From positions 1 to 27,386 of the IMG/VR virus record IMGVR_UViG_2648501669_000002: 27,386 nt of DNA, one strand, 5' to 3'. This document shows, one piece after another, positions 5,223 to 16,934 of the stretch (positions within the stretch are counted from its first letter, which is position 1; every line of letters starts with the position of its first letter). This DNA comes from a virus. Lineage: Duplodnaviria; Heunggongvirae; Uroviricota; Caudoviricetes. The notes beneath the pieces were generated by a model, which had not been told where the DNA came from, ran no database searches, and saw only the letters and a list, made by a program, of their open reading frames with translations. The position numbers and the translations under genes were made by a program.

Positions 5223-5612
5223 ATGATTGACGCTCATGACTTCACAAGATGGGTGCGGACACAGGACACCCGTCTGGCTCCCGTTCTTCAGGGATTATTT
5301 GATCTTTACATCCGTGGTCGTGACAACAGAGCACGCACTACAAAACCGGAGAATGCGGACACCCTTTATTTCACAGTAGACGACTGCTACCGCGTGGACT
5401 TCACACCACACGGGCTGGCGTTGCACTGCCTGACACCACACGGCGAATCACTGCTGGCGTATTACGACTCCCCGGCCTCCGTATTCGCGGCAATGCTGGC
5501 GCATCGCACTGCTGGCGGGTGTGCCTCGCTGAGTGAATACACCGCTGAATTTAACCGCCTTTCCGCCATCTTCTCGCAGGAGTGGCAGCGCGTGACGGGA
5601 TACCAGCCATGA
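5223..5612 (+). CDS. Hypothetical protein (129 aa), translationally coupled to gpA
   Basis: Track ORF with AAAGAG SD; stop overlaps the ATG of the replication gene (ATGA at 5609-5612). Confidence 0.55.
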   Translation: MIDAHDFTRWVRTQDTRLAPVLQGLFDLYIRGRDNRARTTKPENADTLYFTVDDCYRVDFTPHGLALHCLTPHGESLLAYYDSPASVFAAMLAHRTAGGCASLSEYTAEFNRLSAIFSQEWQRVTGYQP

Positions 5613-8434
5613 GCGAGTTTGCATGGAGCTGGAATGAACCACGACCAGCCATTGATCCGGCCAGATTTACGGAGCGCAGGCAGGAAACTGAAACCGACCT
5701 GCAACGCGCCATCCGTTACTACCTTGAGGCAGACAAAAGGGCACAGGAAGAACAGGAAGCGAAGGAAGAAGCCTTTTTCGCACAATCCGCCATGGGTAAA
5801 AAACTCATGGCATCCCTTGAGGAAGCCGGACAGCGTGAAAAGCTGGCACAGAGCATCATCAGTAAGCGCCGGGCAACAGAACAAGACCCAGTAGCCCGTG
5901 CCTTTGCTACACTAAAGGCACTACCTGTTTATCTGCGTGAACCACTGAGCCGCCACCTCTCTTTCCTGCGCAAAAAACAGGAAGCCGATCGCCAGAAAGG
6001 CAAAAAGAGCTGGCAGGCGGAACGCTATGCACGCGGAACCCTGCGCAAAATATTCGAACGTCTGGATCGCACTGACGGACGCTGGCTGACACCGGGTTAT
6101 CGCTCCCTTGCCGGGCGCGAACGCCTGGACGATTTGCTTTACCTGCCGCAGCTCAACAAGCACCAGATACAGACGCTGGCCACCATGATCGCGGCGATGT
6201 TCAGCAGCACCTTCGAAACACTCTGCGATGGCTTTGGTGCCAGAGATGGCGAGCTGACCATGGATGTAATGTTGAAGGCTTACCGGATGCTGGCTCGTAT
6301 CGCATTACGCCTGCACATCATGCCGCCACATTACGAAGCCCTGAACAAGAGCGAACCGGATACGGAACTGCTGCCGGGTGCAATCCTTCGCCTGACCTGT
6401 GCGGACTGGTGGAAACGCAAACTGTGGCTGTTACGTTGCGAGTGGAGAGAAGAACAACTCCGCGCCGCCTGTCTGGTTTCCAGAAAAACATCGCCTTATC
6501 TGAGCCAGGACGCGTTAAGCGAGTTTCGCGCACAGCGCGAGAAAACACGCGATTTCCTGAAAAGTTTCATGCTGGAAAACGAAGACGGGTTCACGATTGA
6601 TCTCGAGACAGTGTATTACGCGGGAGTAAGTAACCCGGTTCACCGTAAGGCAGAAATGATGGCCACCATGAAGGGGCTGGAACTTCTGGCTGAAGCCCGT
6701 GGTGACAAAGCGGTGTTTCTGACTGTCACCTGCCCGTCAAAATACCACGCAACAACGGAGAACGGTCATCCGAATCCCAAATGGAACGGGGCCACCATGC
6801 GCGACTCCAGCGATTACCTGGTTAACACGTTTTTTGCGGCGGTCCGCAAGAAACTGAACCGCGACGGCCTGCGCTGGTATGGCATCCGCACGGTGGAGCC
6901 TCACCATGACGGCACCGTGCACTGGCATATGATGGTCTTTGCCCATCCGGAAGAAATCGACACCATTGTGTCCCACACCCGCGATATTGCCATTCAGGAA
7001 GATCGTCACGAGCTGGGCGATGATATTACTCCGCGCTTTAAGGCGGAGTATGTAGACGGCTCAAAAGGCACGCCAACCAGCTACATCGCCACCTACATCG
7101 GAAAGAACCTGGACAGCCGCGCCGTGGATGGCATCGACCCGAAAACGGGCAAGCCACGCGTTGACCACGAAACAGGAAAATCAATGGCCGAGAGCGTGGA
7201 GCGCGCCATCGGCTGGGCGCGCCTTCACCGGGTCCGCCAGTTCCAGTTCTTTGGCATTCCCTCCCGTCAGGTGTGGCGTGAACTCCGCCGCCTTGCCAGC
7301 CAGATGGCACGCAACCCGGAAGGCCAGCAACGGCTGAAGGATGACGCAATGGACGCGGTTCTTGCTGCCGCTGATGCCGGATGTTTTGCCACCTACATTG
7401 AGAAACAGGGCGGCGTACTTGTTCCACGCAAAGACTACCTGATTCGCACCGCCTACGACCTCGCAGATGAGCTGAACGATTACGGTGAACAGAGCGTACA
7501 GATTTACGGGATCTGGTCGCCGCTCATCGGGGAGTCTTCCCGCGTATGTACACATCCGGATAACTGGAAGCTGGTAAGACGCAAACCGGAAGCGGGAGAC
7601 AGCGCCCGCGAAAATGGTTTTGACCTTCAGGGCGGCCCTGCCGCCCCTTGGACTCATGGCAATAACTGTCCCCGTGTACAGGAAACAGGCAACAGCGGGA
7701 CAGAACTGTCGGAAGAGCAACCAACACCGTGGCCGCAGATCCCTGACAGCGTTGATGTGGATGAATGGATGCGCTCACTGAAACGGCACGAACGCCGGGC
7801 GCTGATGCGTTCGCTGCGTGACAAACAGGCAAAAAACAGCAGTGATGAAATGCAGAGCTGGACACAGAGCCGCAAACAGCCGCGACCTTTGCCTGATAAC
7901 CACGAGTTACTCGCTAAAGAATGGCGGGAGTCTGCTGAATCTCTCGGCCTGCATATTGGTGAACAGCAGATGCAGCACCTGTTACGGGGCGGCAGTCTGT
8001 ACGTTGACGGCAGCATCATTGCACCGCAGGGATTTGAAATTGTACGCAAACCGGATACCCGCCCGGACAGCCGAATCACGCAGCTCTGGCAGCGCCTGAG
8101 CCGTAATCACGGCGTAAGCAGCACGGAGATCCGCCATAACCCGGTCGCCAGTTATCTGGAACAGCTAGGGGCATCAGACCCCGAAGCCGCCGCACGCCTG
8201 GCATCCACACTTCAGCAAGACCAGAACACCATGAAAACACCCGTTACCGTGCTTTCTGACATGCTGCGCGCCATCCGTGACGCAGAGCACGCACAGAGAA
8301 TCAGTGAAACCACTGAACGCGCCCGCCGCAAAGCAAACCTGCTGCGGGGTGGCCTGACCAGTGGAAACAAAAAACAGACAGAAACGGGATTCACAAATCC
8401 CGTAAATGAGCAAAAAACGCGCCGCGATATATGA
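5609..8434 (+). CDS. A: Rolling-circle replication initiation endonuclease, P2 gpA family
   Basis: Track ORF 5582..8434 (GTG at 5582; ATG at 5609 coupled to the upstream stop is preferred). Contains the HUH-type motif VEPHHDGTVHWHMMVFAH and a paired-tyrosine segment TSYIATYIGKN, as in the P2 gpA endonuclease domain, plus an FLTVTCPSKYH motif. At 941 aa it is longer than P2 gpA (about 760 aa, from memory). Confidence 0.85.
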   Translation: MSEFAWSWNEPRPAIDPARFTERRQETETDLQRAIRYYLEADKRAQEEQEAKEEAFFAQSAMGKKLMASLEEAGQREKLAQSIISKRRATEQDPVARAFATLKALPVYLREPLSRHLSFLRKKQEADRQKGKKSWQAERYARGTLRKIFERLDRTDGRWLTPGYRSLAGRERLDDLLYLPQLNKHQIQTLATMIAAMFSSTFETLCDGFGARDGELTMDVMLKAYRMLARIALRLHIMPPHYEALNKSEPDTELLPGAILRLTCADWWKRKLWLLRCEWREEQLRAACLVSRKTSPYLSQDALSEFRAQREKTRDFLKSFMLENEDGFTIDLETVYYAGVSNPVHRKAEMMATMKGLELLAEARGDKAVFLTVTCPSKYHATTENGHPNPKWNGATMRDSSDYLVNTFFAAVRKKLNRDGLRWYGIRTVEPHHDGTVHWHMMVFAHPEEIDTIVSHTRDIAIQEDRHELGDDITPRFKAEYVDGSKGTPTSYIATYIGKNLDSRAVDGIDPKTGKPRVDHETGKSMAESVERAIGWARLHRVRQFQFFGIPSRQVWRELRRLASQMARNPEGQQRLKDDAMDAVLAAADAGCFATYIEKQGGVLVPRKDYLIRTAYDLADELNDYGEQSVQIYGIWSPLIGESSRVCTHPDNWKLVRRKPEAGDSARENGFDLQGGPAAPWTHGNNCPRVQETGNSGTELSEEQPTPWPQIPDSVDVDEWMRSLKRHERRALMRSLRDKQAKNSSDEMQSWTQSRKQPRPLPDNHELLAKEWRESAESLGLHIGEQQMQHLLRGGSLYVDGSIIAPQGFEIVRKPDTRPDSRITQLWQRLSRNHGVSSTEIRHNPVASYLEQLGASDPEAAARLASTLQQDQNTMKTPVTVLSDMLRAIRDAEHAQRISETTERARRKANLLRGGLTSGNKKQTETGFTNPVNEQKTRRDI
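8384..8403. repeat. Palindrome ACGGGATT-CACA-AATCCCGT (copy 1, inside the 3' end of gpA)
   Basis: Read directly: perfect 8-bp arms. Confidence 0.45.
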
Positions 8435-8456
8435 AGCGCGCACAAAACAGGCGAAA

Positions 8457-8476
8457 GCGGGAGTTCAGAATCCCGT
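8457..8476. repeat. Related imperfect palindrome GCGGGAGTTCAGAATCCCGT (copy 2, upstream of parM)
   Basis: Shares the GAATCCCGTAA half with copy 1; centres about 73 bp apart; 34 nt upstream of the parM ATG. Confidence 0.4.
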
Positions 8477-8509
8477 AACCGATTAATTAATCAACATAAG
8501 GAAATCGAC

Positions 8510-9469
8510 ATGAAAATTTGTATCGACGACGGCTCCACCAACATCAAGCTGGCATGGACTGAGAACGGCGAACGCCGCAACGCCATCAGCCCGAACAGCT
8601 TCAAGTCGGAATGGTCAGCGCCGTTCGGTGGCACGCAGCCCGCGAACTACATGCTTGATGGCGTGCGCTATGGTTTTGATCCGGTCAGCGATCGCTTTGT
8701 CCAGACGACCGACACGCAATACCAGTACAGCGATGTGAATGTTATTGCCATTCATCATGCGCTGGTCAAATCAGGCATCACACCACAGGAGGTGGATGTG
8801 GTTGTCACCCTGCCACTGAGCGAGTATTTCGATACAAACGCACAGCCGGACATGGCCAACATCAGCCGCAAAAAAGCGAACGTTATGCGCCCGGTGGAGT
8901 ACCAGAACGGCGAAGCATTCACTATCCGTAACGTGCGGGTTATGCCTGAATCCATTCCGGCAGGCTTTAAAGCACTGGCTGACATGAGTCCGTTTGAATC
9001 CCTGCTGATTGTGGATTTGGGCGGAACCACGCTGGATGTGGCAAAGGTTCAGGGGCAACTGGCAGGTATCAGCCAGGTGTTTTGCGATCCACACGTAGGC
9101 GTTTCTCTGATGGCCGATGCCGTGCTGTCGGTGATGGCCACCAACGGTATGCGTACCAGTCACCACATCGCTAATACCATTATCGAACATCGCCACGATG
9201 AAGCCTGGCTGCGCCAGCACATCCACAATGACGCGCATTACGCCAGCCTGATGGCAGTTATTCGTGAAAAGGAGGAAACACTGAAACAACGCGTGATCCG
9301 CGCGCTGGCGGGTTTTTCGGGTTACGGGCGGGTGATGGTTGTCGGTGGAGGGGCGGAGATTGTGGCACCCGCCATCCGCGAAGCCTGCGGAGTTAATGCG
9401 ACTTTCATCGCGGACGGGGTGCCACAGTTTGCTCTGGTTAATGGGCTGTACGCAATGGACAAGGAGTAA
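8510..9469 (+). CDS. parM: ParM-like actin-type segregation ATPase
   Basis: Track ORF of 319 aa. N-terminus MKICIDDGSTNIKLAW closely matches plasmid R1 ParM (MLVFIDDGSTNIKLQW, from memory), with further ParM-like segments (ISPNSFK, QYSDVNVIAIHHAL, DLGGTTLD). AAGGA SD. Confidence 0.85.
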   Translation: MKICIDDGSTNIKLAWTENGERRNAISPNSFKSEWSAPFGGTQPANYMLDGVRYGFDPVSDRFVQTTDTQYQYSDVNVIAIHHALVKSGITPQEVDVVVTLPLSEYFDTNAQPDMANISRKKANVMRPVEYQNGEAFTIRNVRVMPESIPAGFKALADMSPFESLLIVDLGGTTLDVAKVQGQLAGISQVFCDPHVGVSLMADAVLSVMATNGMRTSHHIANTIIEHRHDEAWLRQHIHNDAHYASLMAVIREKEETLKQRVIRALAGFSGYGRVMVVGGGAEIVAPAIREACGVNATFIADGVPQFALVNGLYAMDKE

Positions 9470-9473
9470 ACCA

Positions 9474-9785
9474 ATGACGACACCAACCAGACGGATAAGT
9501 TTCTATCTGAAGCCCGCCGCCGTCAAGAACGAAGGCGAAGCATGCGCCTGGCTGGACAGCCTTACACCAGAAGCCCGCAAAAGCGGCCAACGCGTGGCTT
9601 TTCTGGCCGGGCTGGCACTTCTGAAAATGAATCCGGCAGAGGCTTACCGACTGGCTGCATGGGCTGATGATGAAGCGTTATCAGTGACACAGACCAGGAC
9701 AGAACGCCCCGCATCACAGCCAGTATCAACCGCACAGATAACCAGCCAGATGGCCGGGAATATCCAGGCGTTATTTCCTGAATAA
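9474..9785 (+). CDS. parR: ParR-like centromere-binding adaptor
   Basis: In-frame Met 46 of track ORF 9339..9785, 4 nt after the parM stop. RRISFYLKP...LDSLTPEARKSGQRVAFLAGLAL parallels R1 ParR (RRTIAFKLNP...LDSIPQGERSRLNRAALTAGLAL, from memory). Confidence 0.7.
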   Translation: MTTPTRRISFYLKPAAVKNEGEACAWLDSLTPEARKSGQRVAFLAGLALLKMNPAEAYRLAAWADDEALSVTQTRTERPASQPVSTAQITSQMAGNIQALFPE

Positions 9786-9791
9786 CACAAC

Positions 9792-9813
9792 ATCAGGGCA
9801 TATTTGCCCTGAT
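9792..9813. other. Perfect hairpin (9-bp stem ATCAGGGCA / TGCCCTGAT, 4-nt loop) just after the parR stop
   Basis: Read directly; no trailing U-tract, so a regulatory or processing role is as likely as termination. Confidence 0.3.
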
Positions 9814-9848
9814 ATCCCCTCTCAAACAAGGCAGCAACAAACTGCCCG

Positions 9849-9876
9849 TTGAATAACACAAATTACATGTTATGAT
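9849..9876 (+). promoter_or_regulatory. Candidate sigma70 promoter (TTGAAT-16 nt-TATGAT) for the 9900..10660 cassette
   Basis: Read directly; the -35 overlaps the second copy of the 12-bp direct repeat TGAATAACACAA (9779-9790 and 9850-9861). Confidence 0.35.
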
Positions 9877-9899
9877 TAACTCATAAGTAACCCCCGTTT

Positions 9900-10286
9900 G
9901 TGTCTTACGTTATGAATGATCAAGATTATGGGCTTGATACCCTATTGGATATGCACGGCTACCAGCACCACATGGATAATGGCTACTGGTGGAAGATTGA
10001 AGCCTACCGGGTCAGCCCAAGCCCATTCAGACCCCACGGGATACGTTACAATCTGACATTACATGACCAGTACAATTCCCGCATATTTGGGATGGATAAT
10101 GCTCATGGAATAAAACCACCGAAGAAGGGCCGTTTCACAGGGAAATTAACTGTTTACGACCATGTGCACCGCACAACATTTGACAAAGGCTATCCCTATG
10201 AATTCATTTCTGCGGAACAGCTTTTATCTGACTTCTTCGATAACGTAGATCGCATCATTGACGAAATCACAAGGGGGAATCAATGA
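9900..10286 (+). CDS. Uncharacterised protein (128 aa), candidate toxin/effector of a two-gene module
   Basis: Track ORF (GTG at 9900; first ATG at 9912). AT-richer than flanking phage genes. His/aromatic-rich segments (HGYQHHMDNGYWWK, YDHVHRTTFDKGYPYEF). Stop overlaps the start of the next gene (ATGA at 10283-10286). Confidence 0.6.
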   Translation: MSYVMNDQDYGLDTLLDMHGYQHHMDNGYWWKIEAYRVSPSPFRPHGIRYNLTLHDQYNSRIFGMDNAHGIKPPKKGRFTGKLTVYDHVHRTTFDKGYPYEFISAEQLLSDFFDNVDRIIDEITRGNQ

Positions 10287-10660
10287 AAGCCCGTATCGGG
10301 ATTATCCCTGAAAATATCCTCCGCCAGCGGCTACTGGATGTCGCCAGAGGAAAACGTAAACCACTGCCAGATGAACCAAAAGTATGGTTTTCTTCACTGC
10401 ACGCTGTAGGGCAAGCTCTGAGTAACGAAAACATTGCTCTGTTACGTCTGATGGATGAAGAAAAACCTCAAACAATGACAGAGTTGGCAGAAATGTCAGG
10501 CAGGAAACTGAGCAATCTTTCAGTAACCTTAAAAATGCTGAGCGGCTACGGTTTTGTCAGCCTGGAAAAGAAAGGCAATACCATTCTCCCGAAAGCATTA
10601 TTCACCGATTTTGAAATCATCATTGATCCATCTGTCGGAACCACTCATCGGGCCGCCTGA
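10283..10660 (+). CDS. Winged-HTH DNA-binding protein (125 aa), candidate antitoxin/regulator
   Basis: Track ORF. Segment PQTMTELAEMSGRKLSNLSVTLKMLSGYGFVSLEKKGNTI has a MarR/wHTH-like helix-turn-helix-wing pattern; translationally coupled to the upstream ORF. Confidence 0.65.
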   Translation: MKARIGIIPENILRQRLLDVARGKRKPLPDEPKVWFSSLHAVGQALSNENIALLRLMDEEKPQTMTELAEMSGRKLSNLSVTLKMLSGYGFVSLEKKGNTILPKALFTDFEIIIDPSVGTTHRAA

Positions 10661-10850
10661 TCCCCACCAAACCAGGGCGATAATCACGCATCGCCCTGCT
10701 GCACAATAGTGCACAAAAAACGCGCTTTTTCTGCGCGCAGGTGACGGGGGAACAGTCCGCGCTTCAGGGGTAAATGGCACCTCCTGAAAGATGCCACAGC
10801 ATCATAATAGAATGAGCGTGTTGTTCACGACACACGCAAAAACAAGAAAA

Positions 10851-10891
10851 CCCGGAACGGGTGCGCAAATTCTTTGTGCGCCCGTTCTGGG
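10851..10891. terminator. Long hairpin, probable intrinsic terminator between convergent operons
   Basis: 19-bp arms (CCCGGAACGGGTGCGCAAA / TTTGTGCGCCCGTTCTGGG) with a 3-nt loop. The three mismatches are G-U wobbles in plus-strand RNA. On the minus strand the hairpin is followed by a U-rich tract (complement of AAAAACAAGAAAA, 10838-10850), 23 nt downstream of the ogr-like stop. Confidence 0.5.
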
Positions 10892-10913
10892 TTGGACAAG
10901 CGAAGCGCGTCAG

Positions 10914-11171
10914 CTATCCAGCCTGCAACAGCTCCAGCGCCATCTGTTTTTCTTCCGGGCGCATCCGTTCAATCAACAGCTTTAACACACCGTTATCCAG
11001 CCCGCTGGGCACCAGTGTGTGCGAGTAGGTCAGATTCATCACCCAGGTATGTCCGCACTCGAGACGGGTGCAACGGTAATACACATCAGCAAACTGATCG
11101 GTTTTCCAGGCTGTTTTCTCAATCACTGCACGAGCACCACAGCAATGACACCGCGCTTTCTGTCTGCGCAT
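10914..11171 (-). CDS. ogr: Ogr/Delta-family zinc-finger late transcription activator
   Basis: In-frame Met 24 of track ORF 10914..11240, preceded on the minus strand by GGGAGGTGGAAA. Cys pattern C-x2-C...(23 aa)...C-x4-C (CHCC...CTRLEC) matches the P2 Ogr zinc-finger topology (CPLC...CQNVNC, from memory). Confidence 0.7.
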   Translation of the reverse strand: MRRQKARCHCCGARAVIEKTAWKTDQFADVYYRCTRLECGHTWVMNLTYSHTLVPSGLDNGVLKLLIERMRPEEKQMALELLQAG

Positions 11172-11236
11172 TTTCCACCTCCCGGAACAACGTTTTACTG
11201 CTGCTGATTTTACCCGCTCCTTCTCCATGTCGCACA

Positions 11237-12271
11237 TCACTCCGTGGCTTCATTAAATTCAAGAATAAATTCCACCTGCCCCAGTCGCCTGATATCAGGG
11301 TCACTATTGATTCCCTCCATAATCAGGCGGCGCATCGGAATAACCTCATCTCTGTAATATGCCTCGCGGGATTTCAGCGGATCACCAAGCCCGGCCGTAT
11401 TTGCGGGAATGATGCCGGCAAGTCCGGGTGGAAAACGGTGCGCAACGAGCTGATCCTGGGCACTGATGGTTTTTATATTCAGGAATTCATCTTTTGTACC
11501 TGAATCCCCGATAGGGATCACCTTAACGCCTTCTTTGTCTCCGCCAGGTATATTGATAAACATGGATTTAAAATTGCCCGCCCCTTTTGACGCCTCTATC
11601 TTTTTACGGAATTCCGCCTCGAGCTCGGGATCCATGTCCGGGTCAGTGGAATACAGGATATAACCAAGATGTGCGCCGTTCTTGTAATACTTGCGGCGAA
11701 AGCGGGTGGCATCCACATTCAGCATGGCAGATTCCATCCCGTGAATATAATCCGGGACACCGTAAACCTGCTGTTGTGGGTCATAAATTGCCACGAACAC
11801 CACTTCGCCTGGCGGGTAAACGAGATCTTCCAGTGCCGCCTGCACAATCACCGTGCCACCTTCGTTGTTGCGTCGCAGGTACAGAGAAGGCAACGTATGC
11901 AGGCGCACCACCCGCCCGAAGCCATTGCGCACTTTAAGCAGCCCCATATCCCCGAATATCAGCAGATTGGTCACTGCTGCCGCCATGGCGGCGTGTGTCA
12001 TACCACCACCACCCCGAAAACCCTGCATGATCATATTCACGCGCGCACGCAATACCGCGCCGTGATACGGTGCGATATTGGACAACATGGCGAGATCCAT
12101 GCGCTCAATGGGCGGCGTGTACCAGCCGTTATAGCCATCCCAGAGCGAGCCGTAATAACAGCCCCATGCAGCGACCGGTTCCGGGTCACCAAATTCAATA
12201 AACGTCATTTTGCTGGCTGTTTTTTTTGCCACGCCATCGTGTAACACGGGGTATTTTTTCTTTTTACTCAT
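11237..12271 (-). CDS. Q: Portal protein, P2 gpQ-like
   Basis: Track ORF of 344 aa, the same length as P2 gpQ, directly downstream of and overlapping the terminase ATPase gene on the same strand, in the conserved P2 Q-P arrangement. Confidence 0.85.
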   Translation of the reverse strand: MSKKKKYPVLHDGVAKKTASKMTFIEFGDPEPVAAWGCYYGSLWDGYNGWYTPPIERMDLAMLSNIAPYHGAVLRARVNMIMQGFRGGGGMTHAAMAAAVTNLLIFGDMGLLKVRNGFGRVVRLHTLPSLYLRRNNEGGTVIVQAALEDLVYPPGEVVFVAIYDPQQQVYGVPDYIHGMESAMLNVDATRFRRKYYKNGAHLGYILYSTDPDMDPELEAEFRKKIEASKGAGNFKSMFINIPGGDKEGVKVIPIGDSGTKDEFLNIKTISAQDQLVAHRFPPGLAGIIPANTAGLGDPLKSREAYYRDEVIPMRRLIMEGINSDPDIRRLGQVEFILEFNEATE

Positions 12272-14051
12272 CTGACAGGATCCATGTTGATTTGCGCTTG
12301 TGCTTATAGTTCAGGGGTTCATTACTTGCGGCATGAGCTATGGCAAAGAAGATGTCAGCGTGCCCGGTTTCTTCGCTACGTTCGGCGGTGAAAGTGACTT
12401 TATTGCCGCTGTTGGTGGATTCCTGACGAATGGCCAGGAATGATGCCGGAATATCCGTGGCTTCCTCATCCCACTCAATACGGTTGGCGTAAACCAGATC
12501 CAGCATCTTCATCACCAGGCGGTTTTTGGATTCCACGCTGTAATGAATGGCCACTGTTTCACGGCGGGCAAATCCCTGAACCAGCTCAAAGACACCGTAG
12601 CCAAGACCGGTGACGTCGATGCCGATAAACGTCATGTTATAGCGCGCCTTAATGCCGCGGATACGCTCTGCCATAAACTGGAATGACATGCTGCGCCAGT
12701 GGTGTTTTTCCAGCACGCGGAATCGTTCTGCCGCAACCAGCGGCGGTGCCAGCACAACAAATGTGGCGTTATCGCCGGAGCGCGCAGGATCAAAGCCGCC
12801 CCACACCTCACGGTTACCAAATGGCATGGGCTCTTCCGGGTGAAAATCCTCCCACGTACTGACATCAACACCACAACGCACAAGATCATCGAATTTAAAG
12901 ACGCTCTCTTTGTCATCCACAAACACACACATAAACAGCATATTGAACGCTGTTTCGTTGTATCTCTCGCGCAGCTCGTTGATATCAGCAAGGTTAAAGC
13001 CGCCGGCAATGGCATCTTCCAGCGTAACCACATAGCGCCACTGACCATCCGGACATTCACGCCCACCATCGCGCAGCTCATCAAAGGATGGAAACTCAAC
13101 CCCTTTTCGTTTCGGATCGCCTTTGCGCCATTCATCGCCAGACCAGAACGGGTAGCCCTGGTGTGTTTTGGATGACGGCGTGGAGAAATAGGTAATACGC
13201 CAGTGTTTATGGGTGGCCATCCCTGATGCCACTTCATTGAGACGGCGAAAACCGGGGATCCACAGGTATTCATCAATATACAGGTGGCCGCTGTTTGACT
13301 GCGCTGTGTTACTGTTGGTCGCCAGAAAATACAGTTCAGCCAGATTACTTAACTTAACCGGATTGCCTTTAATGGGAATGCCAAACTCTGTTTGTGCAAT
13401 TTTTACAATATAAGTACGGAACACTTCGGCCTGACGTTTTGATGCCGATAAAAATATCTGTGTGTCGCCGGTTAATACTGCATCTTCAAATGCCTCAAAC
13501 GCGAAGTAATACGTCGCCCCAATCTGGCGGGATTTAAGCAGGTTGCGTACACGGCGGAATTTGTTTTCACGCAGATGCAACTGATAAGCAAACAACTTTT
13601 TCGTAAACGGCTCAAAACTTTCAGCAGTCAGTCCGGAAACGTCATTAGTTTTGCGGGGACGCTCTTTCTTACCTGCACCTTTTTCTCCGCGTTCTTCTTT
13701 TCCATAACGGCCAGGCTGGGGAATGTCCACTCCCATTCGCGCAATCTCAGCCATTCGTTCCGTGTGCTTGTTTCTGACCGACATCAGTTTGACGTGATGA
13801 CCAATCAGGCGATCAAGCTCATCGTGTTCTTCCTGGGTCTTATGGTCACGTTCCGCCAGTACAGCGAGACGCCGGGCGATAACATCTTCCACGCCTTCCG
13901 TATTGAGCTGCGTGTACCACTCAAACTTTGTCGCCCAGTAATAAACAATTCGCGGGCTGTTCAGTCCGAGTTTCTTTTGTATTTCTTTTGGTGTGTGCCT
14001 TTTCAGATAGAGTGATTTTGCTGCGGCAATAACTTCTTCAGAATAAGCCAT
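12264..14051 (-). CDS. P: Terminase large (ATPase) subunit, P2 gpP-like
   Basis: Track ORF of 595 aa (P2 gpP is about 590 aa), divergent from the scaffold gene; sequence is of the P2-type terminase ATPase family (recognised from memory). Confidence 0.9.
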   Translation of the reverse strand: MAYSEEVIAAAKSLYLKRHTPKEIQKKLGLNSPRIVYYWATKFEWYTQLNTEGVEDVIARRLAVLAERDHKTQEEHDELDRLIGHHVKLMSVRNKHTERMAEIARMGVDIPQPGRYGKEERGEKGAGKKERPRKTNDVSGLTAESFEPFTKKLFAYQLHLRENKFRRVRNLLKSRQIGATYYFAFEAFEDAVLTGDTQIFLSASKRQAEVFRTYIVKIAQTEFGIPIKGNPVKLSNLAELYFLATNSNTAQSNSGHLYIDEYLWIPGFRRLNEVASGMATHKHWRITYFSTPSSKTHQGYPFWSGDEWRKGDPKRKGVEFPSFDELRDGGRECPDGQWRYVVTLEDAIAGGFNLADINELRERYNETAFNMLFMCVFVDDKESVFKFDDLVRCGVDVSTWEDFHPEEPMPFGNREVWGGFDPARSGDNATFVVLAPPLVAAERFRVLEKHHWRSMSFQFMAERIRGIKARYNMTFIGIDVTGLGYGVFELVQGFARRETVAIHYSVESKNRLVMKMLDLVYANRIEWDEEATDIPASFLAIRQESTNSGNKVTFTAERSEETGHADIFFAIAHAASNEPLNYKHKRKSTWILSDE

Positions 14052-14100
14052 AAACTACCTGTGGAATTTATTTTAATGGGTTTTCATCTTTTTCCGGTTC

Positions 14101-14118
14101 GTTCCGTAGCGTTCCGTA
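14101..14118. repeat. Tandem direct repeat GTTCCGTA-GC-GTTCCGTA in the P-O divergent promoter region
   Basis: Read directly. Confidence 0.35.
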
Positions 14119-14174
14119 ATATCCCATTATTTGCCGCAGGCATTTTTTTAACGATTATCTGTTTTCGGTATTTT

Positions 14175-14196
14175 TCGGATATATGCGCATATCCGA
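14175..14196. promoter_or_regulatory. Near-perfect 22-bp palindrome TCGGATATATGCGCATATCCGA in the P-O intergenic region
   Basis: 8-bp perfect arms; lies in the 230-bp AT-rich divergent region where P2-type phages have Ogr-dependent late promoters (established for P2; assignment here is inference). Confidence 0.35.
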
Positions 14197-14281
14197 AAGT
14201 ACCGGAAATTAATCAGATGACGACGTTTTCATTTCTCCGTTAAATAACGCCAGTTTAATTTTTATCAGCGGATTAATTCAG

Positions 14282-15178
14282 ATGACGAAGCAGAAAACAG
14301 ACTGGGTTGTGGTTGCCACATCAGGCCCCACCATCGACGGTCGGGAAATTGATCCGAAGTGGCTGACGGATGCCGCCGAGGTTTACAACCCGGACGAGCG
14401 AGCCGCCATGCTCTGGCCATATCACGCCGATTCCGGATGGCGTGCCTTCACCAATAACTACGGCATTGTTGATGCCCTGAAAGTCGAAAAATTTGGTGAA
14501 AAGGTGCAGCTTAAAGCACGCCTGATCCCAAATCGCTTCCTGATTGAAGCCAATAAGGCCGGGCAGAAACTTTTTACCTCCATTGAAGTGCGGGAAAACT
14601 ATCTGGGCACGGGCAAATTCTTTGTGTCCGGTATCGCCGTGACGGATACCCCAGCCAGCATTAACACTACACGCCTGCAGTTTTCCATGGGGGAAGCCAT
14701 CCATATGGGCAACGCAGAGGCGCTGAATTTTACGCTGCAGCCTGATGATGAGCAGGCCAAGCGCAACTTCTTCTCCCGCTTCTTCTCATCTGACAATCAC
14801 CAACAGGGAATTTACCAAGCCATGAACGAAGAACAGTTCAGCCAGTTAATGGGTGCCATTAATAAAACCAGTGAACGCCTGGACGAGCTGGAAAAAAACG
14901 TCGCGCAGTTCAGCGCGAAGGATGCCCCGAAAGATACCGGTGATAACAAGCCGGAAGGCAGCACCGGCGATCAGGGGCAGGACAACGCAGAACAGAACAA
15001 CAAGGACGACAAAACCTTCACGCTGACCACCGAGCAGGGCGAAAAGCTGTTCTCCACAGTGAACGCCATCGCGGAGAAGGTTACCAGTATGGAAACCGCA
15101 TTTGCTGAACTCAGCAAGGACGCCACGAAGCTGCCGGGCAACAATCCGGCCGGTGGCGAAACTTTTAACCTGGTGTAA
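14282..15178 (+). CDS. O: Capsid scaffolding protein, P2 gpO-like
   Basis: Track ORF of 298 aa; N-terminal region (VVVATSGPTIDGREIDP...FVSGIAVTDTPAS) parallels P2 gpO; conserved position. Confidence 0.85.
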   Translation: MTKQKTDWVVVATSGPTIDGREIDPKWLTDAAEVYNPDERAAMLWPYHADSGWRAFTNNYGIVDALKVEKFGEKVQLKARLIPNRFLIEANKAGQKLFTSIEVRENYLGTGKFFVSGIAVTDTPASINTTRLQFSMGEAIHMGNAEALNFTLQPDDEQAKRNFFSRFFSSDNHQQGIYQAMNEEQFSQLMGAINKTSERLDELEKNVAQFSAKDAPKDTGDNKPEGSTGDQGQDNAEQNNKDDKTFTLTTEQGEKLFSTVNAIAEKVTSMETAFAELSKDATKLPGNNPAGGETFNLV

Positions 15179-15192
15179 CCGGAGAGAGCGCA

Positions 15193-16206
15193 ATGAATTT
15201 CACACCAGAAGCACAAAAGCTGGTTAATCGCTATATCAGCGAACTGCAAAAAACATTCAGTGACTGCGAACGCTCGAGCGATCGTTACTTTTCACTGACC
15301 GAACCGCGCAGCATTGCCCTGCGTAAAGCCCTGCTGGAAAGCACGGAGTTTCTGAGTTTCATCACCTGCATGGACGTTCCGCACCCGCAGGGGCAGGTCG
15401 TCACCGTGGGCGAATCCACACTGCGCACCGGTCGCGTGAAAAGCGGTCGTTTCGCTAAAGGTTCGGGCATCAAAGGCAACGAATTTAAACTCGTTGAAAC
15501 TGATTCCTGCTGCGTGATCACCTGGGAACAACTCGCCATCTGGGCGAATGCCGGCAGCCCGCAGGAATTTTTCAACCTGATGAACTCCGCCGCCGTCACC
15601 AACTTTGCGCTGGATATGCTGCGCATTGGCTTTAACGGTAAAACAGCAGCGGAAAACTCTGACCCGGAAAGTCATCCGAACGGCGAAGACGTCAACATCG
15701 GCTGGCATGAAATCGCCAAAAAGTGGGGAGAACAGCCCGGCAATACCTCCCGTATTCTGACAGACGCCGTTACCCTGGGCGAAGGCGGCGATTATGTCGG
15801 TCTTGATGCCATGGCCTCAGACCTGATCCGCACTTACATCCCGGCACAGTATCACAACGACCCACGACTTACCGTACTGGTCGGCGCAGACCTTGTGGCT
15901 GCTGAAGAACTACGCCTCTACAACAAAGAGGATAAGCCTACCGAAAAAGTGGCCGCACAGTTGCTGACAAAGAACATTGCAGGCCGCAAGGCTATCATTC
16001 CGCCGTTTATGCCGGGCAAACGTATGGTGGTGACCATGCTGCCAAACCTGCAGATCCTGACGCTGAAAGGCTCCCGCCGCCGCAAGGCAGAAGATGTGGG
16101 CGATCGCAAACAGTTCGAAAACTCATACTGGCGTTATGAGGGGTACGCCCTGGGCGATCCGGATTTATATGCTGCCGTGGATGAGTCTGCGGTCACCATC
16201 TCCTGA
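15193..16206 (+). CDS. N: Major capsid protein, P2 gpN-like
   Basis: Track ORF of 337 aa; segments LRIGFNGKTAAENSD, GEGGDYVGLDAM and DPRLTVLVGADL parallel P2 gpN (MAGFNGVKRAETSD, GKGGDYASLDAL, DPDLVVIVGRQL, from memory). Confidence 0.85.
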   Translation: MNFTPEAQKLVNRYISELQKTFSDCERSSDRYFSLTEPRSIALRKALLESTEFLSFITCMDVPHPQGQVVTVGESTLRTGRVKSGRFAKGSGIKGNEFKLVETDSCCVITWEQLAIWANAGSPQEFFNLMNSAAVTNFALDMLRIGFNGKTAAENSDPESHPNGEDVNIGWHEIAKKWGEQPGNTSRILTDAVTLGEGGDYVGLDAMASDLIRTYIPAQYHNDPRLTVLVGADLVAAEELRLYNKEDKPTEKVAAQLLTKNIAGRKAIIPPFMPGKRMVVTMLPNLQILTLKGSRRRKAEDVGDRKQFENSYWRYEGYALGDPDLYAAVDESAVTIS

Positions 16207-16223
16207 TAAACGGAGCGCACGGT

Positions 16224-16934
16224 ATGCCAACGCCAATGCAGCGACAACGTGCCCGACAGATGGATGAGCGCCGTGCGGCGCTCATGACCAGAACAGACGG
16301 GCGCGCCGTCAGCACAGAGAGTCAGCACATTAAGCTGCTGGCACTGGATAACGATGTCAGACAACTGCACAACATGGAGCTGCTGTCTGACAAGCTGGAA
16401 TTCAAGCGGAACACGCTGCTGCCCCGCTGGCTGCCACACGCACAGGCTTATCTGGAGGGGGAACGCGTCTATCAGAATCCCATTCTGGTGTACTGCATCA
16501 TCTGGCTGTTCGATACCGGGCAGTTTGAGATGGCGCTGCGGTGGGCTGACATTGCCATTGAGCAGGGGCAAAAGACGCCGGAGAACTTCAAAAGCGAGCT
16601 GCCAACGTTTGTGGCCCATTTCATTCTTGAATGGGCAGAAGCCGAAGCTGAACGCGGGAACAGTATCGCGCCATATTTTCAGCAGGTGTTTGAAAAAATC
16701 CGCGACAAATGGCGCGTGAATGAACGCCTTGCTGCCCGCTACTGGCGCTTTGCAGGCATCCTGCTGCTGCGCGGCGATGACGGCAAGCCACAGGCCAGCG
16801 CAATTAACGATCCGGAGAGACTGCAACAGGCCGACCAGTGCCTGGAACGGGCTGCCTGGCTGCATCCCAAAATTCAGGTGAAAACCCTGCGCCAGCGCAT
16901 TGCCGCAAGACTGCGCGCGTTGCAGGGCACGTAA
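16224..16934 (+). CDS. M: Terminase small/endonuclease subunit, P2 gpM-like
   Basis: Track ORF of 236 aa (P2 gpM is about 247 aa); conserved position after N. Confidence 0.8.
   Translation: MPTPMQRQRARQMDERRAALMTRTDGRAVSTESQHIKLLALDNDVRQLHNMELLSDKLEFKRNTLLPRWLPHAQAYLEGERVYQNPILVYCIIWLFDTGQFEMALRWADIAIEQGQKTPENFKSELPTFVAHFILEWAEAEAERGNSIAPYFQQVFEKIRDKWRVNERLAARYWRFAGILLLRGDDGKPQASAINDPERLQQADQCLERAAWLHPKIQVKTLRQRIAARLRALQGT

Follow-up and report, generated by a model that had tools for sequence, protein, structure and literature searches.

The stretch of DNA analyzed here, which we call the window, comprises 27,386 nucleotides (IMG/VR record IMGVR_UViG_2648501669_000002) and belongs to a P2-like (Peduoviridae) prophage of Escherichia coli, as identified from its open reading frames (ORFs) and Pfam scans. 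We focused on the interval from 8435 to 10913, between the replication endonuclease gene gpA and the portal (gpQ-like) gene. This interval is probably a composite of an R1-type parMR partition core, a gpA–gpQ swap slot holding a toxin-first type II toxin–antitoxin (TA) cassette of the TumE–TumA type, and a cos-proximal flank, with the cassette working in the manner proposed below. An earlier, sequence-only reading had listed parMR, a two-gene toxin-like cassette with its own promoter, and multiple dyad elements, all of which were recovered by ORF listing, Pfam, and repeat and fold scans. That reading had also placed the interval between gpA and the portal gene. While gpA does end at 8434, a minus-strand gene encoding an Ogr/Delta-like zinc-finger late activator precedes the portal gene, and the interval therefore abuts this ogr-like gene and not the portal gene itself. 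Coordinates of all features are collected in Table 1.

The cassette and its relatives in the TumE–TumA superfamily

The first gene of the cassette encodes a protein that we assign to the TumE (DUF6516) family, PF20126. Among the matches listed, all homologues at 50-94% identity carry this domain. The exact 124-amino-acid protein, found on at least 149 Escherichia contigs, is itself on record as PF20126:TumE with the match marked weak, and in the Shewanella and Legionella relatives the match is unmarked (strong). Using blastn against complete E. coli genomes, we found both cassette genes at 75-79% nucleotide identity in at least 13 genomes, where RefSeq names the products "toxin-antitoxin system TumE family protein" or "DUF6516 family protein" and "HVO_A0114 family putative DNA-binding protein." At the protein level, the TumE-like protein and its partner are 80% and 82% identical, respectively, to those of one relative (locus L006).

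The AlphaFold2 (AF2) model of the TumE-like protein (predicted local distance difference test score, pLDDT, 87.8) shows an alpha+beta fold in which an antiparallel sheet carries two helices. Searches of the PDB returned no sequence match and no confident structural analogue for the protein or its model, in line with the published description of TumE (PMC10584680). Residues H42, H51, D62, H65, D83, H86, and D91 are invariant among the homologues, and these histidines and aspartates suggest a catalytic site of the hydrolase type. Both cassette genes are under strong purifying selection, with a ratio of nonsynonymous to synonymous substitution rates (dN/dS), against four alleles, of 0.04-0.07 for the tumE-like gene and 0.04-0.06 for its partner gene.

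The partner, here called TumA-like, is predicted by AF2 (pLDDT 87) to start with a beta-alpha unit at the N-terminus, followed by a winged helix of the ArsR/SmtB/MarR kind and a tail that is disordered. Its Foldseek matches are ArsR/SmtB/MarR winged helix-turn-helix (wHTH) proteins. The tail is variable except at its very end, which reads -AA in 37 of 44 homologues and -VA in another 4. The -AA end may be a ClpXP-type degron, which would fit a labile antitoxin.

The two ORFs overlap by 4 bp (10283-10286). Their counterparts in E. coli, Salmonella, Yersinia, Shewanella, and Legionella come in the same order and either overlap or lie no more than about 2 nucleotides apart. The pair was seen in this order in five prophage lineages. 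In the E. coli and Salmonella relatives it again lies between gpA and the portal gene, in P2-like prophages that have a different gpA and no parMR. The Shewanella copy sits in an island adjoining an integrase gene, the Legionella copy in an island adjoining relB and an integrase gene, and the Yersinia copy at a chromosomal site. Plasmid records yielded one near-full-length cassette match (in a 1.0-Mb E. coli record), a partial match in Pantoea, and a short match in Legionella.

A promoter scan placed a sigma-70-type promoter with a TG-extended -10 element upstream of tumE. Promoter-like sites as such are not enriched (2 found versus 2.7 expected by chance); the -35 and -10 hexamers of the cassette are conserved in five unrelated cassette-bearing prophages. 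Over the -10 hexamer lies the inverted repeat TTATGA-N5-TCATAA, which is invariant in the five prophage lineages and in Yersinia and differs by one change in Shewanella. In Legionella, where the partner is only 36% identical, a different palindrome occupies the same place. This pattern is as expected of an autoregulatory operator, and the repeat is a candidate binding site for the TumA-like protein.

The sequence-only reading had singled out the interval as a place to look for an uncharacterized function. At the family level this description does not hold, as the cassette is of the TumE–TumA type, a TA superfamily defined in 2023 (Durairaj et al., Nature; PMC10584680), and the hotspot in which it lies has been published (PMC9122126). 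In that work, toxicity in E. coli was shown for six gammaproteobacterial DUF6516 proteins, as was neutralization by their cognate partners; translation was inhibited by one TumE toxin, and the authors proposed, but did not demonstrate, an RNase activity (PMC10584680). The six validated pairs, from Thioploca, Thiothrix, Crenothrix, Methylotuvimicrobium, Ectothiorhodospiraceae, and Allochromatium, belong to subcluster 1a, with TumE mostly downstream of its partner (PMC10584680). The pair in the window resembles them in its DUF6516-type protein of about 120 amino acids, whose alpha+beta fold lacks a PDB analogue, and in being a two-gene operon with a DNA-binding partner, carried on mobile elements in Gammaproteobacteria. 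Judged by sequence, the cargo is a new subfamily member of the known superfamily. It shares with higBA and mqsRA, toxin-first type II TA systems with helix-turn-helix antitoxins, a leading toxin gene, a downstream gene for a DNA-binding antitoxin, and a palindromic operator in the promoter, but it has no sequence or fold relation to them, and the TumE fold is without a solved relative.

Several observations weigh against reading the cassette as a TumE–TumA-type TA pair with a role in defense. Local Pfam, NCBIfam, PADLOC, and PHROGs scans left the TumE-like ORF without a match at a threshold as loose as E ≤ 10, and the precomputed PF20126 match of the exact protein is only the weak one described above. 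Local hmmscan was also silent for relatives that RefSeq names TumE, so we take this null result as a limitation of the local profile library, and the family assignment rests on the precomputed Pfam matches and the homologues. The validated pairs have smaller partners, with antitoxin constructs of 289-388 bp that correspond to about 75-108 amino acids (inferred from the synthetic DNA lengths), whereas the window pair is toxin-first and has a 125-amino-acid HVO_A0114 partner. Given this difference in order and partner, neutralization by an HVO_A0114-type protein is putative, and the -AA degron and the operator binding are likewise predictions. The cassette was absent from all 50,697 phage records searched. 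With no PADLOC model, no PHROGs toxin family, and no phage record containing the cassette, a role in phage defense is no more than a suggestion drawn from the company that the cassette keeps.

Some of these points would also fit a cassette that is not a toxin system at all. The pair could encode a small enzyme or binding protein together with its dedicated winged-helix regulator, forming a "moron" with a non-toxic, host-modulating role; the toxicity of the TumE/HVO_A0114 subfamily is putative, the exact protein matches its Pfam domain weakly, the partner is unlike the validated TumA proteins, and HVO_A0114/MarR-like proteins include ordinary regulators. Yet every one of the TumE proteins assayed (six of six) was toxic (PMC10584680). 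The coupled translation of the two genes, the candidate operator overlapping the -10 hexamer, and the mobility of the two genes as a pair near integrases or other TA genes are typical of type II TA systems, and Doc/Phd and HigBA-like pairs are found among the other occupants of the slot. We consider a non-toxic function improbable.

For the preferred TA reading, we propose the following sequence of events. The sigma-70 promoter would transcribe tumE together with a translationally coupled tumA. TumA, probably as a dimer, would bind TTATGA-N5-TCATAA through its winged helix and repress the operon, and it would neutralize TumE through direct binding. The disordered tail ending in -AA would make TumA protease-labile, such that a collapse of host gene expression (for example, upon infection by another phage) or loss of the element could lead to TumA decay. 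Free TumE, a putative His/Asp-rich hydrolase or RNase, would then block translation and arrest the cell.

The swap slot and its occupants

To compare this locus among relatives, we assembled 80 IMG/VR viral contigs (loci L026-L105) in which ParM is 99-100% identical to that of the window; a ParR scan of genome contigs had returned 3 loci, too few, and the ParM scan of viral contigs was used instead. The whole parR-to-portal stretch is spanned in 63 of these loci, or 64 with the window. When clustered at ≥85% mutual coverage and ≥85% identity, the 64 stretches, which range from 988 to 4167 bp, fall into 32 unrelated types with 49 protein families. The cassette of the window is present in just 1 of the 80 parM-bearing loci (L026, identical to the window). 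None of 5,426 complete E. coli genomes covers more than 63% of the interval, and the missing part runs from 9815 to about 10655.

These results bear on how much of the interval is variable. The variability among P2-like prophages assumed by the sequence-only reading is well borne out, and comparison with relatives separated conserved flanks from variable content, with the cassette falling outside any core common to all. However, that reading had taken the full 2.5 kb as a cargo hotspot. The hotspot is real, but parMR is conserved core, and the part that truly varies between the relatives compared is about 0.85 kb (about 9815-10660). The opposite view, that the interval is conserved core without special variability, could appeal to the high conservation of parM, the palindromes upstream of it, and the block at 10709-10814; with 32 unrelated contents among 64 loci and the limit on genome coverage, it is refuted for 9815-10660 and is scarcely tenable for the interval as a whole.

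The slot is bounded on the left by a stem-loop (9792-9813) that closes the parMR module. This stem is preserved through compensatory changes across loci, and the sequences diverge straight after it. On the right, homology returns with the stop codon that closes the last cargo gene (about 10656), and a second stem-loop (10673-10698), just 3' of tumA, is common to P88-type loci with other cargo. The two stem-loops, which are similar and GC-rich (CAGGGC…GCCCTG), bracket the slot; they could be transcript-end structures or recombination landmarks. An exact 12-nucleotide direct repeat, TGAATAACACAA, occurs at the parR stop codon (9779-9790) and at the -35 hexamer of the cassette (9850-9861), with the copies 71 nucleotides apart. 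This repeat may be the trace of a cassette recombination junction or may be due to chance.

Other occupants of the slot are diverse. The gap holds an ead/Ea22-like gene in E. coli 31B19CPO012 (L001), six genes in PhiR44_2, and a reverse-strand gene for a membrane protein in Shae_phiSM; Escherichia phage P88 (Xuanwuvirus) differs from the window in having two other small genes there. PADLOC matched several slot alleles to recognized or candidate defense systems: IetA (4e-89) and IetS (7e-41) in L094, an AbiL-like pair (AbiLi, 3e-27, and AbiLii) in L033, an RmrA-like protein (3e-35) with a PIN partner in L069, PDC-M04A (3e-35) in L078, and PDC-M11A (4e-131) with PDC-M11B (6e-51) in L087. By Pfam, other alleles encode Doc/Phd pairs, Gp49/HTH_37 (HigBA-like) pairs, DUF4760 proteins, and ClpX-zinc-finger proteins. 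Further alleles without a PADLOC match or outside the PADLOC scan include families of 174 and 187 amino acids, unmatched in Pfam, and an Ead/Ea22-like family of 196 amino acids. For the cassette itself, where a search for a defense function had been advised, PADLOC-DB 2.0 gave no matching defense model; the TumE-like ORF was unmatched, and the TumA-like ORF gave only weak, wHTH-level matches to CasR/CARF3 models (E from 5e-5 to 4e-3).

The position of the slot is that of the old/tin locus of P2. The layout that the sequence-only reading gave for P2 agrees with the P2 reference record, in which the order is A, orf91, tin, old, cosR/cosL, tQ, Q. Like that locus, the interval follows the replication endonuclease gene and precedes a cos-like block, a tQ-like terminator, and the portal gene, and it shows extreme turnover of content between near-identical phages, with known defense systems in other alleles. 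The window lineage differs in that conserved parMR fills the left part of the interval, and the swap slot therefore begins after parR. In the profile scans, none of the ORFs in the interval showed an ATPase, TOPRIM, or Tin-like domain, and the cargo is unrelated to Old (ABC ATPase–TOPRIM) or Tin; the equivalence is positional only.

The gpA–gpQ locus of E. coli P2-like phages has been published as a phage-defense hotspot, with 1,650 arrangements in 18,150 loci (Rousset et al. 2022, PMC9122126). Table S5A of that study already catalogues the present arrangement, unannotated, and the wHTH partner of the L005-type cassette is listed as "hypothetical" (PMC9122126). A 2026 study described very rapid swapping among elements with identical core genes (PMC13586616). 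Our survey reproduces this published picture, and the hotspot itself was already known.

Because of the other slot occupants, we view the exclusion of competing phages by abortive infection as the most likely benefit of the cassette. A more ambitious proposal would be that the toxin-first TumE/HVO_A0114 pair is an unrecognized abortive-infection system, absent from PADLOC and PHROGs, that circulates as a promoter–operator–TA cartridge among the cos-proximal hotspots of P2-like lineages in E. coli and Salmonella and is triggered by decay of an antitoxin with an -AA degron. We offer this proposal tentatively, as a possibility about which we have real doubts.

The parMR operon and replicon maintenance

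The operon in the left part of the interval is intact and encodes an actin-like ParM and a ParR adaptor, the combination that identifies a type II ParMRC system (Pfam, PHROGs). Across the relatives compared, parMR is conserved core of the P88-like (Xuanwuvirus) lineage and takes up more than half of the 2.5-kb interval; it occurs in 1401 of 5426 complete E. coli genomes. Whereas ParM is invariant, ParR occurs as two alleles, one about 83-100% (about 97%) and the other about 51-57% (about 54%) identical to the ParR of the window; 16 residues at the start and a few at the end are conserved, and the middle has diverged. An invariant ParM next to a ParR that splits into two alleles implies that a recombination breakpoint lies where parM meets parR.

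The palindrome ACGGGAYTCACAAATCCCGT occurs twice at a spacing of 73-74 nucleotides, once within the 3' end of gpA and once upstream of parM. Both copies are kept in 76 loci, whichever ParR allele is present. When we tested these palindromes as parC by their co-variation with the ParR allele, there was none; parC is therefore a candidate identity, and the pair may be parC, an operator of parMR, or an element related to gpA.

The closest comparison is the ParMRC system of R1/NR1 (StbA/StbB), in which a full-length ParM (StbA_N and ParM_N) likewise precedes a ParR of the StbB type and palindromic sites lie upstream. The parMR of the window differs in being carried by an integrating P2-like prophage, in having two palindromes only where R1/NR1 has an iteron array, and in the presence of two ParR alleles alongside an invariant ParM in its lineage.

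One record in our survey, L113 (NZ_CP148288.1), is a 34,461-bp circular E. coli "plasmid" that corresponds to a complete P88-like genome, with an integrase gene, parMR, and a full set of virion genes. The record could reflect an episomal state, or else phage DNA that was present through induction and entered the assembly.

Type II TA systems classically stabilize replicons, and parMR directly adjoins the cassette. The two modules could thus form a maintenance pair, combining partition with post-segregational killing, that keeps an extrachromosomal P88-like genome or penalizes loss of the prophage, with no part in defense. The circular genome deposited as a plasmid (34.5 kb) would fit such a role. 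A putative partition system is present at gpA–gpQ in about one in four P2-like phages, and Rousset et al. speculated that it permits maintenance as a plasmid (PMC9122126). However, the interval was matched in 1401 of the 5426 complete E. coli genomes at 1965 chromosomal places versus 2 on plasmids, meaning that nearly all copies are integrated, and relatives of the element carry an integrase. In addition, tumEA is found in only 1 of 80 parM-bearing loci, which indicates that the parMR and tumEA modules are not linked, and the same cassette occurs in P2-like prophages that lack parMR. We therefore judge a dedicated maintenance pair to be unlikely and favor the composite reading given above.

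The late-gene junction and significance of the cassette

To the right of the slot lies a 106-bp non-coding block (10709-10814) that is 80-88% identical in 27 of the 32 interval types. Its core, GCGCGCAGGTGACGGGGGAAC, is common to P88-like and other P2-like lineages, and the position of the block matches that of P2 cos relative to tQ and Q. Compared with P2 cosL, the core is alike at 12 of 19 positions, estimated to be the chance level; a scan allowing ≤5 mismatches found nothing. An attempt to locate cos through record ends also failed, as the P88_4B11 record neither begins nor ends at cos. The block is absent within ±20 kb in the L041 and L114 types, which share the ogr–portal–terminase genes of the window at 97% identity. 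Given the chance-level likeness and this absence, we label the block a candidate cos region only.

The absence of the block from prophages that share the late genes at 97% suggests that the window is recombinant, with its two parts joined near 10830-10840. From 1033 to about 10800, the early half (with gpA, parMR, and the cos-like block) matches Escherichia phage P88 and other Xuanwuvirus genomes at about 93% identity. Beyond about 10830, the late genes derive from a lineage other than that of P88: the late-gene module (10830-16300) had no megablast match in the 50,697 phage records and is present in 43 complete E. coli genomes. The tail genes of this module in L114 (DUF2586, DUF2590, tape measure) look unlike the tail set of P2. 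The Ogr/Delta gene follows the portal gene immediately and apparently shares its leftward operon; neither P2 nor P88 has a gene at this place.

The sequence-only reading had also credited the interval with a strong terminator. Terminator-like sites are enriched (10 versus 3.3±2.0 in shuffles), and the hairpin at 10849-10893 is real. However, its U-run follows on the minus strand only, so the transcript that it ends is that of the leftward ogr/portal/terminase operon and not that of the cassette. An Rfam search returned no credible RNA family in 8300-11300.

Table 1. Positions of genes and sequence elements in and around the gpA–portal interval of the window
Feature	Position	Strand	Details
gpA replication endonuclease gene, left flank	5582-8434	+	PF05840 Phage_GPA, E=1e-130; about 93% nucleotide identity to phage P88
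Palindrome ACGGGAYTCACAAATCCCGT, about 19 nucleotides, two copies	8384-8402, 8458-8476		Repeat families D1, I1; candidate parC/operator
parM, actin-like segregation ATPase gene	8510-9469	+	StbA_N E=4e-82, ParM_N E=1e-68, full length; phrog_691 partition protein
parR, StbB-type adaptor gene	9474-9785	+	PF10784 Plasmid_stab_B, E=2e-24; phrog_2515
Stem-loop closing parMR module, left slot border	9792-9813	+	9-bp perfect arms; -15.7 kcal/mol, z -6.2
Variable cargo slot (promoter, tumE, tumA)	9815-10660	+	Homology of relatives lost from about 9815 to about 10655
Sigma-70-type promoter	9849-9876	+	TTGAAT-16-TATGAT, TG-extended -10; from scan
Inverted repeat TTATGA-N5-TCATAA	9870-9886		Candidate TumA operator; overlaps -10 hexamer
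tumE-like toxin gene (DUF6516/PF20126), 124 amino acids	9912-10286	+	Homologues with PF20126; no local Pfam match
tumA-like partner gene, HVO_A0114 winged-helix DNA-binding protein, 125 amino acids	10283-10660	+	PF25212, E=1e-15
Stem-loop 3' of tumA, start of right conserved flank	10673-10698	+	9-bp perfect arms; z -4.9
Conserved non-coding block, candidate cos region	10709-10814		Core GCGCGCAGGTGACGGGGGAAC at 10733-10753
Intrinsic terminator, leftward ogr/portal/terminase operon	10849-10893	-	21-nucleotide arms; -26 kcal/mol, z -4.45; then UUUUCUUGUUU on minus strand
Ogr/Delta-like zinc-finger late activator gene	10914-11240	-	PF04606, E=8e-13; phrog_603
Portal (gpQ-like) gene, right flank	11237-12271	-	PF04860
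Large terminase gene	12264-14051	-	Terminase_6N and Terminase_6C

Taken together, the finding is sound but largely ordinary, and it leaves current understanding unchanged. TumE–TumA has been validated solely as a TA system in a heterologous host (PMC10584680). A subfamily of it recurs here as cargo in the best-documented prophage defense hotspot, beside IetAS, AbiL, and other TA pairs. For the P88-like lineage, the borders of the slot are sharpened to two conserved stem-loops. What is gained is a concrete and cheap hypothesis, that TumE–TumA may act in phage exclusion, for which the native promoter and candidate operator are supplied.

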